The notes: generated by a model not told the origin, from the sequence alone. DNA of 64,000 bases from Bacteroidales bacterium (GCA_028709215.1 JAQVXI010000001.1:60537-124536), one strand, 5' to 3'. Counted from the stretch's first letter, positions 1,650 through 60,785 are shown. A program made the numbers and translations.

Positions 1650-2492
1650 TTAAATTTTTTGTTTGCCTTGTTTGTATTCACCCAAAATCTTTAGATTTTT
1701 GGTTAGCGGACGGATGGCATCGAGGCTTTGCTTGTATTTCATATAATCCTCGAACGTCAGGTCTATGTAAAACAGATATTCCCATTCGTGCCCCATGATG
1801 GGCATGGACTGAATTTTGCTCAGGTTGTTTTGGAAGTAGGATAAAACCGATAGAACCTGCGCCAAGGCGCCTGAGGTATGCTGAGTGGTTAAGACAATGG
1901 ATGCCTTGTTGATTTCTGAGGTTGTGTTGTACTGCTCTGCATTCCAACGATCGGATAAAATCAAAAAGCGGGTAAAATTTCGTTTATTGGTTTCGATGCC
2001 CGGAGACAAAACGTCGAGGTTGTACACTTCTGCCGCTAAACTGCTACAGATGGCAGCGCGACCCATGATTTTGCCTTCTTGAATATCTTTCGCACTCCAT
2101 GCCGTGTCTTCGCTTTCAACCACTTTCCAATCCGGGTGTTCCGCAAGAAAATCTTCGCACTGCATCAGGGCGATCGGATGGGAGTGCACCTCCCGAATGT
2201 CTTCTAATTTTTGACCGGGCATTGCAGCCAGATTGTGGCTGATGCGCAATTTGTATTCACCGATGATGCTTGTATCACTTTCACGCAACAAATTGTGGTT
2301 TTGCAGCAAGCTACCTGCAATGGTGTTCTCAATGGCAATAATGCCCAGTGTATTGTTGTCCTTGCGTAGGGTTGCAAAGACTTCTTTGAACGAATGGCAA
2401 CCGATAATCTCAATGTCTTCTCCTTCGAAAAATGAACGGGCGGCAATGTCGTGGTAAGCTCCTGCGATTCCCTGAATGGCTACGTGTTTCAT
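1650..2492 (-). CDS. pheA: Prephenate dehydratase
   Basis: 280-aa ORF. PDT domain with NFTRFLILS, plus a C-terminal ACT-like segment (SGALAQVLSVLS). First gene of the minus-strand aromatic operon. Confidence 0.9.
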   Translation of the reverse strand: MKHVAIQGIAGAYHDIAARSFFEGEDIEIIGCHSFKEVFATLRKDNNTLGIIAIENTIAGSLLQNHNLLRESDTSIIGEYKLRISHNLAAMPGQKLEDIREVHSHPIALMQCEDFLAEHPDWKVVESEDTAWSAKDIQEGKIMGRAAICSSLAAEVYNLDVLSPGIETNKRNFTRFLILSDRWNAEQYNTTSEINKASIVLTTQHTSGALAQVLSVLSYFQNNLSKIQSMPIMGHEWEYLFYIDLTFEDYMKYKQSLDAIRPLTKNLKILGEYKQGKQKI

Positions 2493-2508
2493 AAGTTTGC
2501 GTTTGAGT

Positions 2509-2542
2509 AAAAAAAAGGTCCCGACTATTTCTAGCGGGACCC
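2509..2542 (-). terminator. Intrinsic terminator (attenuator) 16 nt upstream of the pheA start codon
   Basis: Minus strand reads GGGTCCCG-CTAGAAATAGT-CGGGACC followed by TTTTTTTT. Stem 2517-2523 / 2535-2541, 11-nt loop, U-tract from the A-run at 2509-2516. It sits between a leader ORF and pheA. Confidence 0.65.
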
Positions 2543-2562
2543 TTCTATTTTATTTTGTTCGA

Positions 2563-2640
2563 TTAAGCACACAAAATCCCGCTCTTACTTGTGTTAAAGT
2601 AAAAGTAAAAATAAAAGTATGCAAAACCTCTTTGGTTCAT
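2563..2640 (-). CDS. Putative Phe/Tyr-rich leader peptide of the pheA operon (25 aa)
   Basis: Hand translation of the minus strand: ATG AAC CAA AGA GGT TTT GCA TAC TTT TAT TTT TAC TTT TAC TTT AAC ACA AGT AAG AGC GGG ATT TTG TGT GCT TAA = MNQRGFAYFYFYFYFNTSKSGILCA. That is 5 Phe and 4 Tyr codons within 10 positions. Below the ORF-track size cutoff. Confidence 0.55.
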   Translation of the reverse strand: MNQRGFAYFYFYFYFNTSKSGILCA

Positions 2641-2658
2641 AATTGTTTCTATTTGCTG

Positions 2659-2666
2659 CAAAAATA
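2659..2666 (-). promoter_or_regulatory. Bacteroides-type -7 promoter motif (TATTTTTG) upstream of the leader ORF
   Basis: Plus strand CAAAAATA = minus strand TATTTTTG, matching TAnnTTTG. It ends 18 nt upstream of the leader ATG. Confidence 0.4.
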
Positions 2667-2760: not shown

Positions 2761-3417
2761 ATGCATGCATTGATCATTGGAGCGACTGGGGCGACAGGCC
2801 GAGCGCTATTGGAACAACTGTTGGATGATGCTTCCGTAGAACGTGTAACGGTTTTTATACGCAACAAATGGGTGCTGTATCACAAAAAATTAACGGCTCA
2901 TGTCGTTGATTTTAATCAGCTGGATTCTTGGAAGCATTTAATCGTCGGGGATGTTTTGTTTTCCTGTTTGGGAACAACACGCAAGGCTGCCGGCAGTAAA
3001 GCCGGTCAGTGGTTGGTTGATTATACCTATCAAGCTGAATGTGCACGGATTGCCTCTGAGAATCAGGTCTCGGCTTATGTTTTGGTTTCTTCGGTGAATG
3101 CCTCGGAAGCGTCTTCCTTTTTTTATTCCAGAATGAAGGGACAGTTGGAAACATACATACAAACCCTGTCCTTTGCCAAAGTCCTTGTTTTTAGACCGCC
3201 CATTCTCATTCGAAAGAACAGTGATCGAAGACTGGAAGTTTTGAGTGTATCGCTTTTAAAAACACTGAACTCTATTGGCTTGTTACGCACTCAAGCTCCA
3301 CTGGCAACCGAATCGCTGGCTACTGCAATGATTCGGTCGCTTCAAGCGCATTCGGTGGGTTTTTATCTTTTCAATCCGACGGATATTCAAAAAATCATTT
3401 CGCCGATTGAGGAATGA
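2761..3417 (+). CDS. NAD(P)H-binding (Rossmann, atypical SDR-like) protein
   Basis: 218-aa ORF. N-terminal dinucleotide-binding motif IIGATGATGRALL. No more specific function is recognisable. Confidence 0.6.
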   Translation: MHALIIGATGATGRALLEQLLDDASVERVTVFIRNKWVLYHKKLTAHVVDFNQLDSWKHLIVGDVLFSCLGTTRKAAGSKAGQWLVDYTYQAECARIASENQVSAYVLVSSVNASEASSFFYSRMKGQLETYIQTLSFAKVLVFRPPILIRKNSDRRLEVLSVSLLKTLNSIGLLRTQAPLATESLATAMIRSLQAHSVGFYLFNPTDIQKIISPIEE

Positions 3418-4681
3418 AATCCAACGCTTGTTGGAGGTCGCTAAGGATGTCGTCAATGTGTTCGATCCCAACAGAAAAGCGAATTAGGTCGGGTTGCACA
3501 CCCGCTTCAACCAGTTGTTTGTCGGTCAGTTGTCGATGGGTATGGCTCGCCGGGTGCAGTACGCTGGTGCGCGCATCTGCTACATGGGTGACAATGGCGG
3601 CAAGCTTGAGTCGATCCATCAATTGAATAGAGGCTTCTCGTCCTCCCTTAAGACCAAACGTTACGACACCACAGGATCCCATCGGTAAATATTTTTGTGC
3701 CAGTGCATAATACGGATCGTTCTTCAAGCCGGAATAATGCACCCAAGCGACTTTTGGTTGCGCCTGAAGGTAGTTGGCCACGTGTAGGGCATTTTGGCTG
3801 TGACGTTCCATGCGAAGGTGTAACGTTTCCAGACCGAGATTGATGAGAAACGCGTTCTGTGGGGACTGTGTTGCACCCAAATCCCGCATCAATTGTACCG
3901 TAGCCTTGGTTAGATAGGCCGTATTTCCAAATTTTTGAGTGTACACAATGCCATGATAGGAGGGGTCTGGGCTTGTGAGGCCGGGATATCGATCACTGTG
4001 TTTGTCCCAGTCAAAACGACCACCATCTACGATCACTCCGCCGACGCTGCTGGCGTGACCATCCATGTATTTTGTAGTGGAATGAATCACAATGTCGGCA
4101 CCCCATTCCAACGGTCGACACAAAAGAGGTGTTGCAAAGGTGTTATCGACGATGAGCGGGACTCCATGTTTGTGCGCAATGCGCGCAATTCGCTCAATGT
4201 CAAGTACTGCCAGGCTTGGATTGGCGATGGTTTCGGCAAAAAACGCTTTTGTATTGGGTTTGAAGGCTAAATCAATGCATTCTTCGGATGCCTCTTGATC
4301 AATAAAACTGACTTCAATGCCAAGCCGAGCCAGTGTAATGGAGAAGAGGTTAAAGGTGCCTCCATAGATGGCAGATGTACTGATGACGTGATCTCCTGCT
4401 GAACAAATGTTGAATATAGAATAAAAGGTGGCGGCTTGACCGGAAGCCGTGAGCATGGCCGCTGTCCCTCCTTCGAGTTCGGCGATTTTTGAGGCTACGG
4501 CATCGTTTGTCGGATTTTGAAGCCGGGTGTAAAAATACCCATTGTCCTCAAGGTCAAAAAGCTTGCCCATCTGTTCACTGGTATCGTATTTGAATGTAGT
4601 ACTTTGATAGATGGGTAAAACCCTGGGTGCCCCGTTGCCGGGTTTCCAGCCCGCCTGAATGCACGTTGTTTCTAGTTTCAT
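3395..4681 (-). CDS. metY: O-acetylhomoserine aminocarboxypropyltransferase / sulfhydrylase (Cys/Met-metabolism PLP enzyme)
   Basis: 428-aa ORF. PLP-lysine motif HSTTKYMDGHASSVGG. The N-terminal QAGWKP...YQSTTF pattern is typical of OAH sulfhydrylases. Confidence 0.85.
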   Translation of the reverse strand: MKLETTCIQAGWKPGNGAPRVLPIYQSTTFKYDTSEQMGKLFDLEDNGYFYTRLQNPTNDAVASKIAELEGGTAAMLTASGQAATFYSIFNICSAGDHVISTSAIYGGTFNLFSITLARLGIEVSFIDQEASEECIDLAFKPNTKAFFAETIANPSLAVLDIERIARIAHKHGVPLIVDNTFATPLLCRPLEWGADIVIHSTTKYMDGHASSVGGVIVDGGRFDWDKHSDRYPGLTSPDPSYHGIVYTQKFGNTAYLTKATVQLMRDLGATQSPQNAFLINLGLETLHLRMERHSQNALHVANYLQAQPKVAWVHYSGLKNDPYYALAQKYLPMGSCGVVTFGLKGGREASIQLMDRLKLAAIVTHVADARTSVLHPASHTHRQLTDKQLVEAGVQPDLIRFSVGIEHIDDILSDLQQALDFIPQSAK

Positions 4682-4780
4682 TGTTTTTATTGAATGATGG
4701 TTTCAGTATAATTGACTAGACAAAGTTCGCATAAAAAGAAATAACATATTGTTGGTATGGAGTATAATAGAAAATATAAC

Positions 4781-46197: not shown

Positions 46198-46272
46198 GAG
46201 CTGTTAGCTCAGTTGGTTTAGAGCACTACCTTGACAGGGTAGGGGTCACTGGTTCGAATCCAGTACAGCTCA
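46198..46272 (+). tRNA. tRNA-Val (anticodon GAC)
   Basis: Hand-folded cloverleaf: acceptor GAGCTGT/ACAGCTC, D arm GCTC-AGTTGGTTTA-GAGC, anticodon arm CTACC-TTGACAG-GGTAG, variable loop GGGTC, T arm ACTGG-TTCGAAT-CCAGT, discriminator A. CCA is not encoded. Confidence 0.93.
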
Positions 46273-59494: not shown

Positions 59495-59515
59495 AAGCCA
59501 CCTTGCGGTGGCCTT
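59486..59515 (-). terminator. Minus-strand-oriented intrinsic terminator (second of a tandem pair)
   Basis: Minus strand: AAGGCCACC-GCAA-GGTGGCTTT followed by TATTTTTT. On the plus strand the hairpin is followed by an A-run instead. Confidence 0.45.
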
Positions 59516-59544
59516 AAAAAAAAGAAGGTTGTCTCACGACAACC
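59516..59544 (-). terminator. Minus-strand-oriented intrinsic terminator (first of a tandem pair)
   Basis: Minus strand: GGTTGTC-GTGA-GACAACC followed by TTCTTTTTTTT. Confidence 0.45.
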
Positions 59545-59587
59545 AATCTTCCTTAACCTTAAATCTAATACCATGAAAAACACAGTG

Positions 59588-60386: not shown

Positions 60387-60388
60387 TC

Positions 60389-60785
60389 GGTGGAGATGGA
60401 GGGAGTCGAACCCTCGTCCAAACAGTAAACCAATACGCTTTCTACATGCTTATCTTCGCCTAAATTTTCGAGTCGAAACCGGACCGAAGCCACCTATTGC
60501 GACCTTATTCCATTTATTTCAGAAACAACCCTGGACCTGCTGCTTCCTATTCCCGATATTACTGCACCACCGATTCCATTCAGCTTCAGGACGTGAGCTT
60601 GGGGTGATGTGACGTCCCCGCAACTGTTGCAGGGATTAAGCTTAAATCTACTGTGATTCGATTAAGCAGCGAGAGCGTAATTGTTTTCGCCAGTTATGGT
60701 TCTGGTTCTGATATTAAAGTGCGTATAACCAAAGCACTGCATGCTTACATACCTGTTCTAACCGCTGTCAAAACCAAACATCCCC
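60389..60785 (-). ncRNA. ssrA: tmRNA (transfer-messenger RNA)
   Basis: The minus-strand 5' end GGGGATGTTTGGTTTTGACAGCGG pairs with the 3' end CATCTCC-A-CC, including the G3:U pair. T arm CGAGGGTTCGACTCCCTCC. Tag reading frame GGC GAA AAC AAT TAC GCT CTC GCT GCT TAA = GENNYALAA at 60691-60662. About 397 nt. The terminal A of CCA is not encoded. Confidence 0.93.

Follow-up and report, generated by a model that had tools for sequence, protein, structure and literature searches.

A conserved element on the minus strand of a 64,000-nt stretch of DNA (the window) from an uncultured Bacteroidales bacterium, at positions 2509 to 2666, very probably constitutes a classical ribosome-mediated transcription attenuator, in which four pairing regions would control an operon for the synthesis of phenylalanine (Phe) and tyrosine (Tyr). 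The operon comprises pheA, an aminotransferase gene, a DAHP synthase/chorismate mutase gene, and a prephenate dehydrogenase gene. Judged from the comparison of sequences, the proposal that this attenuator reads both Phe and Tyr codons is strongly supported, with conservation, covariation, and geometry as its basis. The element is conserved across the order Bacteroidales. As an attenuator it would be of the classical kind, with a relative already described in the phylum, and it adds nothing conceptually new to attenuation. Overall, the Phe/Tyr pathway of the dominant gut order gains a cis-regulatory element with good support, one that is missing from Rfam and from genome annotation.

Layout and conservation of the leader

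All coordinates given by a first-pass annotation of the window matched to the base when the minus strand was read directly from 2900 to 2300. They included a -7 promoter motif, a 25-codon open reading frame (ORF) with five TTT and four TAC or TAT codons, a hairpin followed by eight U residues, and a 16-nt gap before pheA. The promoter motif, TATTTTTG (2659-2666), is of the Bacteroidota type TAnnTTTG and lies 18 nt before the leader ATG; it would place the transcription start site (TSS) at about 2653 and leave a 5' untranslated region (UTR) of about 13 nt. The leader ORF runs from an ATG at 2640 to a TAA at 2565-2563 and encodes MNQRGFAYFYFYFYFNTSKSGILCA in 25 codons plus the stop codon. The leader is A-rich and without a Shine-Dalgarno sequence; Bacteroidota lack Shine-Dalgarno-led initiation. 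The regulatory codons, numbers 6 to 15 (2625-2596), read TTT GCA TAC TTT TAT TTT TAC TTT TAC TTT, with five Phe codons (all TTT), four Tyr codons (TAC or TAT), and one Ala codon, and thus 9 of the 10 specify Phe or Tyr. This is the sole stretch with at least 8 Phe or Tyr codons in 10 in the six frames of the window, and the mean number of such stretches in 100 first-order Markov resamples is 0.01.

Four pairing regions can be assigned to the transcript. Region 1 (2622-2597) overlaps the Phe/Tyr codons and pairs with region 2 (2567-2590) in the minimum free energy (MFE) structure. Folds and pair counts identify the core of region 2, AGCGGGAUUUU (2583-2573), as the antiterminator strand, and the flanking segments AAGUAAGAG and GUGUGC form pairs with the Phe/Tyr codons and with GCAUAC (2622-2617). 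Region 3 (2533-2544) is the 5' arm of the terminator, AAGGGUCCCGCU, which has region 2 (antiterminator) and region 4 (terminator) as its alternative partners. Region 4 (2509-2526) consists of the 3' arm of the terminator, AGUCGGGACC (2526-2517), and a U8 tract (2516-2509). The terminator hairpin, GGGTCCCG (2542-2535) with CGGGACC (2523-2517), has an energy of -18.6 kcal/mol, and the T8 tract that follows it ends 16 nt (2508-2493) before the pheA ATG at 2492. The first-pass annotation had also pointed out the complementarity, which is exact, of AGCGGGA (2583-2577) to TCCCGCT (2539-2533); U-G and U-A pairs extend this duplex to 11 bp (2583-2573 with 2543-2533), giving an energy of -17.0 kcal/mol and a z score of -4.5 versus a shuffled partner. 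Folding of the whole leader gives -40.3 kcal/mol (z = -4.76), which none of 200 dinucleotide shuffles equaled.

A search of the 64-kb window for a second copy of the leader found none, and a crude scan of it for other amino-acid-run leader ORFs returned none that was convincing. A consensus promoter and terminator scanner made no promoter or terminator call at the locus. The sigma-70 hexamers that it uses are the wrong promoter type for Bacteroidota, and it missed the terminator hairpin because the loop is 11 nt long (6 nt with a bulge), compared with the 3 to 8 nt of the scanner's rule. A chance ORF was considered and rejected along with other readings (riboswitch or T-box, functional small protein).

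Scanning one genome per species gave 80 pheA loci from Bacteroidales and Marinilabiliales, in Bacteroides, Phocaeicola, Parabacteroides, Tannerella, Paludibacter, Dysgonomonas, Proteiniphilum, Barnesiella, Paraprevotella, Prevotellaceae, Azobacteroides, and Saccharicrinis. In this first screen, 74 of the 80 had, within 400 nt upstream of pheA, a mini-ORF that starts with ATG and carries at least 7 Phe or Tyr codons in 10. Three further loci carry such a mini-ORF, one with a GTG start (L073) and two cut by a contig end (L030 and L061). With two loci that have no upstream sequence left out, the total is 77 of 78 assessable loci, and the element spans Bacteroidaceae, Tannerellaceae, Prevotellaceae, Paludibacteraceae, Dysgonomonadaceae, Barnesiellaceae, and Saccharicrinis. 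The sole assessable locus without a leader is L049, from a Dysgonamonadaceae metagenome-assembled genome, where pheA lies at 2501 directly after a coding region, possibly as part of an operon that was rearranged or joined to a different transcription unit.

The leader peptides are 16 to 34 aa long, each with 4 to 9 Phe and 2 to 6 Tyr codons. A hairpin with a U-tract follows in 73 of 75 loci under a strict U-tract rule, and the remaining two have a hairpin with a weaker U-tract. In 72 of 75 loci, the 80 nt before the leader ATG contain a TAnnTTTG motif, which occurs in 2.4% of 4721 control windows. Of the features that the first-pass annotation had proposed looking for upstream of pheA orthologues, the Phe/Tyr-run ORF and the terminator are therefore conserved, and the covarying pairs are described below.

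The start codon, an intact frame, and the stop codon are kept in all 77 element-bearing loci, and indels within the Phe/Tyr run are multiples of three. The peptide looks conserved, including a ..K.G..C. tail, and its counterpart in Bacteroides thetaiotaomicron is one of 409 small ORF (sORF) candidates in that species, with no role assigned (Ryan et al. 2020, PMC7366714). These observations would fit a functional small hydrophobic protein, with the hairpin ending its own short transcript and pheA expressed independently, but we consider this very improbable. The stop codon lies 1 to 4 nt before region 2 in 19 loci and 15 to 43 nt past the start of region 2 in the others, yet the nucleotides of region 2 are conserved in all cases, wherever the stop codon falls. 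Because the stop precedes the tail in those 19 loci while the nucleotides stay conserved and covary with the terminator, the tail (..KSGILCA) is, on this comparison, conserved as RNA and not as peptide. In addition, peptides of 16 to 34 aa share no conserved feature besides the Phe/Tyr run, and no promoter motif was seen between the terminator and pheA, though none was searched for. The element is also always found 10 to 57 nt upstream of pheA, the upstream copy in two tandem loci excepted.

No Rfam family reaches its gathering threshold at the leader in the window or at 12 cultured-species loci. In a permissive search, matches to Phe_leader, Thr_leader, and small RNA (sRNA) models all stayed below threshold and owed their scores to the U-rich run and the terminator. 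The match to Phe_leader (RF01859) covers 2508-2630 on the minus strand with 30.0 bits (E = 0.0054), below the gathering score of 55, and Bacteroid-trp (RF01692) is absent among the 14 matches with E of ≤10 in 2300-2900. A covariance model (R1) built from 64 other loci, with the window left out, matches the window over its full length (2508-2652, minus strand) with 110 bits (E = 9.6e-22). It scores 81 to 135 bits on the other loci, and the element was found upstream of pheA in every locus bearing it. The window shares both features that mark this unnamed family of Bacteroidales pheA Phe/Tyr leaders, namely, a position directly upstream of pheA (77/78) and the TAnnTTTG motif (72/75). The alignment and the model are ready for a new Rfam family.

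The weak, sub-threshold likeness to several sRNA models, together with the existence of 5'-UTR-derived sRNAs in Bacteroides, could be taken to mean that the terminated leader (about 145 nt) is mainly a trans-acting sRNA and that control of pheA is a by-product. This explanation is hardly credible. The likeness is driven by the terminator, linkage to pheA is strict, and the conserved parts are exactly those needed for switching in cis. Moreover, no sRNA family is found at threshold in the window or at the 12 cultured-species loci, and none is listed at the B. thetaiotaomicron coordinates in the searchable supplementary files of Ryan et al. (2020, PMC7366714).

Alternative helices and ribosome geometry

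Pairs were counted per sequence in a 75-sequence alignment, with columns numbered by alignment. The terminator helix (3:4) is paired in 96.3% of cells, with 8 of its 10 pairs compensatory, versus 37 to 58% of cells in slid controls, and 0 of 500 shuffles paired as well. The antiterminator helix (2:3) is paired in 85.3% of cells (slid controls, 33 to 53%). Among its pairs, columns 93/192 have GC in 46 sequences and AU in 28, with none unpaired; columns 90/195 have AU in 43 and GC in 26; and columns 91/194 have GC in 64 and AU in 9. The antiterminator proposed in the first-pass annotation is found at a fixed position in 73 of 73 loci tested (median duplex dG of -15.9; z of -3.9), and it covaries with the terminator arm. 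The leader-internal helix (1:2), in which the Phe/Tyr codons pair with the antiterminator strand in the window MFE structure, was overlooked in that annotation, which had the antiterminator and the terminator right. It is paired in 83.6% of cells (slid controls, up to 63%), and columns 63/91 have CG in 63 sequences and UA in 9.

In 58 sequences, columns 63, 91, 194, and 214, which fall in regions 1, 2, 3, and 4, hold C-G-C-G; another 8 have T-A-T-G or T-A-T-A. A synonymous change of a Tyr codon from UAC to UAU therefore tracks changes in both the antiterminator and the terminator. Such joint change of three helices is the mark of selection on helices that exclude one another.

Codon usage bears on whether both amino acids are read. 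In the window and 74 orthologous leaders, 85% of Phe codons are TTT, compared with 42% in the accompanying pheA genes, and 61% of Tyr codons are TAC (212 UAC and 135 UAU), compared with 50% in the pheA genes. This bias could represent the 1:2 pairing constraint or selection for a less-preferred Phe codon that sharpens the sensor. The excess of UUU suggests an RNA-level constraint, and the core of the run, UUUUACUUUUACUUU, which lies inside the 1:2 helix, is nearly invariant in nucleotides. Both would be consistent with an attenuator that responds to Phe only, in which the Tyr codons persist for the sake of base pairing, UAC being the partner of GUA in region 2, and not for a readout of tRNA-Tyr charging. 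We regard this as improbable. Tyr is retained through synonymous changes, and where UAU replaces UAC the partner base has changed too; every leader has 2 to 6 Tyr codons; and Phe and Tyr codons swap positions freely between lineages. Furthermore, a ribosome would stall at the same place whichever codon of the run was slow, and the operon contains prephenate dehydrogenase, which makes the joint sensing of Phe and Tyr sensible.

The first antiterminator pair lies 7 to 15 nt after the last Phe/Tyr codon in all 73 loci (mostly 11 to 12 nt; 12 nt in the window), about the distance protected by a ribosome beyond its A site. This arrangement was simulated at the 73 loci by folding transcripts that end immediately ahead of region 4, a 28-nt mask taking the place of the ribosome. 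With the mask on the last Phe/Tyr codon, the antiterminator forms in 70 of the 73. When the mask covers the stop codon instead, antiterminator pairing is prevented in the window and in all 19 short-peptide loci but in only 23 of the 54 long-peptide loci. The first-pass annotation had proposed that the antiterminator is free when a ribosome stalls in the run and masked when it reaches the stop codon; the former agrees with the simulation, whereas the latter holds for the window and the short-peptide loci and fails in 31 of the 54 long-peptide ones. In long-peptide loci of the Bacteroides type (e.g., L078, L080, and L066), the stop codon is about 25 nt past the start of region 2. On the simulation, their off state must depend on transit of the ribosome through region 2 or on re-forming of the 1:2 helix, for which the textbook scheme falls short.

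The alternative helices alone could switch, and ribosome-free simulation often favors the antiterminator, as would be expected of a translation-independent RNA switch (a metabolite- or protein-binding riboswitch or a T-box-like element) in which the ORF is incidental. We assign this a very low probability. An incidental ORF would not be expected to keep its start, frame, and stop in all 77 loci or to take its indels in multiples of three, and the fixed spacing between the Phe/Tyr run and the antiterminator fits a ribosome footprint. No riboswitch or T-box family of Rfam matches in 2300-2900, even at E of ≤10, and a conserved, structured pocket for a ligand is absent, the stretch that links regions 2 and 3 being variable in both length and sequence.

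For the ribosome-mediated attenuator, the following sequence of events is proposed. Transcription would start a few nucleotides past TATTTTTG, and the 25-codon leader would be translated while being made. If charged tRNA-Phe or tRNA-Tyr were scarce, the ribosome would stall in the Phe/Tyr run (2625-2596) and cover region 1 and about 10 nt more, leaving AGCGGGAUUUU (2583-2573) free from 12 nt past the last Phe codon. This strand would pair with AGGGUCCCGCU (2543-2533) once the latter had been transcribed, no terminator would form, and RNA polymerase would read into pheA. If both tRNAs were charged, the ribosome would reach the UAA at 2565-2563 and cover region 2; regions 3 and 4 would then form the GC-rich hairpin with its U8 tract, and transcription would stop at about 2509. 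If no ribosome were present, the Phe/Tyr codons would pair with region 2 before region 3 exists, and termination would be the default.

Termination by default appears plausible from the folding models. The 1:2 domain of the window (-19.3 kcal/mol) can form before region 3 has been made, and in the full leader the structure with 1:2 and the terminator (-40.3 kcal/mol) is strongly preferred over that with the antiterminator enforced (-27.8 kcal/mol).

Several points weigh against the attenuator as proposed. In 57 of 73 loci, the window included, the equilibrium MFE structure of the ribosome-free truncated transcript contains the antiterminator and not 1:2; a default off state is therefore argued from kinetics, by the order of folding, and not from thermodynamics. 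The 31 long-peptide loci in which the stop-codon mask leaves the antiterminator unmasked also count here. Regarding the helices, covariation was counted per sequence and not per evolutionary event, RNAalifold on the alignment recovers the terminator only and not 1:2, and the covariation of 1:2 is modest, its U-rich strand pairing promiscuously (63% in the highest slid controls). Finally, the translation of the leader, the stall, the early end of transcription, and a response to each of the two amino acids are steps that we infer from sequence, and to our knowledge tight transcription-translation coupling has not been demonstrated in Bacteroidota.

A more elaborate possibility, which we think unlikely, concerns the near-invariant F-Y-F-Y-F core (UUU UAC UUU UAC UUU). 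Ribosomes might be slowed by the aromatic peptide itself as it emerges, or by the slippery, U-rich codons, and the element would then be a peptide-assisted two-input sensor with its gain set unlike that of proteobacterial attenuators. In that event, conservation of the element throughout the order would provide the first strong evidence for tight coupling of ribosomes to RNA polymerase in Bacteroidota.

Relation to known attenuators

The closest well-known counterpart of the element is pheL-pheA of Escherichia coli and other Gammaproteobacteria (RF01859), in which a short leader ORF with a Phe run is likewise combined with three helices (1:2, 2:3, and 3:4) formed by four regions and with an intrinsic terminator that lies shortly before pheA. 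However, the window is not detectably homologous to it (30 bits versus 55), and the B. thetaiotaomicron orthologue scores only 19.4 bits. The codons also differ, in that those of the window alternate between Phe and Tyr while those of pheL are for Phe only, and the window operon also makes Tyr by way of prephenate dehydrogenase. Furthermore, the window element belongs to a different phylum, with a TAnnTTTG promoter and an A-rich leader that has no Shine-Dalgarno sequence. Leaders that serve more than one amino acid are established in enterobacteria, where the thr leader has Thr and Ile codons and the ilvGMEDA leader has Ile, Leu, and Val codons. These multivalent attenuators resemble the Phe/Tyr leader as proposed here in that one peptide reads more than one tRNA species and the operon serves more than one amino acid, but they concern other amino acids and another phylum, and the codon types in the window strictly interleave.

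The first-pass annotation had known of no described mixed Phe/Tyr leader in Bacteroidota. Such leaders have in fact been recorded twice. Guerin et al. (2021, ISME Commun, PMC9723704, SI D9 and Table S7) annotate as an attenuator a mixed Phe/Tyr/Trp leader of pheA in Flavobacterium psychrophilum, MNTNNTFYSNNSFYFYWNIGRDCYMVI, with a TSS 20 nt upstream of the ATG, read-through in nutrient-poor conditions, and, as they note, no Rfam match. In the published sequence we found an antiterminator, GGGAUUGU/ACAAUCCC, that begins 10 nt past the last aromatic codon. The F. psychrophilum leader shares with the window its phylum, the order of pheA and then an aminotransferase gene, a mixed aromatic leader peptide, the terminator core UCCCG, and the same antiterminator geometry. 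It differs in belonging to Flavobacteriia, in having fewer and less regular Phe/Tyr codons, and in having a Trp codon in addition. It is described in the supplement only, without covariation analysis.

The second record is sORF_00347 of B. thetaiotaomicron VPI-5482, listed with a TSS at 5111397 (minus strand), 34 nt upstream of the ATG, by differential RNA sequencing (Ryan et al. 2020, Nat Commun, PMC7366714). This sORF is the orthologue of the window element, with the peptide MKSFSYAYYFFFYFYFSQKVEREFVCIK and the same antiterminator strand, GAGCGGGAG. It stands there as an uninterpreted table candidate, and the text of that paper discusses no attenuator, terminator, or link to pheA (PMC7366714). 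The Bacteroidales element thus explains an orphan sORF and a long 5' UTR in this species. The supplement also holds an automatic, weak Phe_leader match at 5111192-5111338 (PMC7366714). Other weak Phe_leader matches, at 2857676, 3020797, and 4878340 of NC_004663.1, have scores like that of the true pheA leader (supplementary file 4, PMC7366714), and therefore sub-threshold matches in AT-rich Bacteroides are mostly noise and cannot by themselves identify the element.

Within the phylum, Bacteroid-trp (RF01692, Weinberg et al. 2010) is likewise a leader-peptide attenuator of an aromatic amino-acid operon. It differs in having Trp codons and in controlling the trp operon, and it has no match to the window region at E of ≤10. 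Among motifs of relevance here, Weinberg et al. (2010) give an actinobacterial pheA motif and Bacteroid-trp and no others. A literature search found no description of the Bacteroidales element, though it did not cover Lopatovskaya, Seliverstov, and Lyubetsky (2010, Mol Biol 44:128), who possibly predict attenuators in Bacteroidetes. A search for the peptide string FYFYF gave unrelated papers only, and neither a gammaproteobacterial pheL survey nor an actinobacterial study mentions mixed Phe/Tyr leaders.

Taken with Bacteroid-trp and the Flavobacterium leaders, the Bacteroidales family suggests that leader-peptide attenuation is used throughout a phylum with unusual translation initiation and, therefore, that transcription-translation coupling is used there as well. 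The leader could also provide a compact Phe/Tyr-responsive part for Bacteroides engineering.

Variant leaders, the operon, and neighboring features

A metagenome scan for the F-Y-F-Y-F core together with the antiterminator core returned 120 stretches, and 96 of the 103 with enough downstream sequence precede pheA. Six of the seven matches without pheA were rejected as chance, having neither a start codon nor a terminator. The seventh, L187, is a genuine variant from a 34% GC organism. Its mini-ORF, MNIKLVLKFYFYFYPA, is read from the minus strand, with the ATG at position 626 of the reverse-complemented locus, and has its own antiterminator and terminator (GGCGGGA ... CCCCGCacaaGCGGGG-UUUUU). 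The leader precedes genes for DAHP synthase and 3-dehydroquinate synthase and about ten more ORFs that resemble shikimate or aromatic pathway genes. The Phe/Tyr sensor design is therefore not tied to pheA.

Two loci have tandem units upstream of pheA, at 2163-2315 and 2324-2468 in L016 and at 2140-2287 and 2325-2458 in L058, each unit with a complete leader and terminator; such tandem attenuators would multiply the regulatory range. A weak match to the leader model (29 bits, E = 0.0016) at 4602-4690 on the plus strand of L033 lies between the aminotransferase gene and the next gene of the operon and may be due to chance or represent an internal terminator-like element.

The first structural gene of the window operon is pheA (1650-2492, minus strand), which encodes a prephenate dehydratase of 280 aa (Pfam PDT, 3.7e-55) whose homologues are also of 280 aa with full coverage. 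It is followed on the same strand by a class I/II aminotransferase gene (484-1647; Pfam Aminotran_1_2, 6.2e-59) and by the 5' part of a gene encoding a DAHP synthase/chorismate mutase fusion (1-462), which was recognized from its translation and is cut by the window edge. These assignments agree with the three genes named in the first-pass annotation. On longer contigs of the same organism (L081 and L082), DAHP_synth_1+CM_2 is followed by PDH_N, with the genes tightly packed; prephenate dehydrogenase thus lies after the DAHP synthase/chorismate mutase gene, outside the window. With both prephenate dehydratase and prephenate dehydrogenase, the operon makes Phe and Tyr. Proteins identical to this PheA come from metagenomes only, and the next relatives are about 80% identical.

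The upstream neighbor (2761-3417, plus strand) is divergent, and the hairpin was therefore rejected as the terminator of an upstream gene; it sits between the promoter and its own gene. Some further features of the window are unrelated to the leader. A member of the FopS family of Bacteroidetes sRNAs (RF04319, 78.7 bits; 59514-59583, minus strand) adjoins the transfer-messenger RNA gene (60388-60785, minus strand), and a tRNA gene is located at 46198-46272 on the plus strand.

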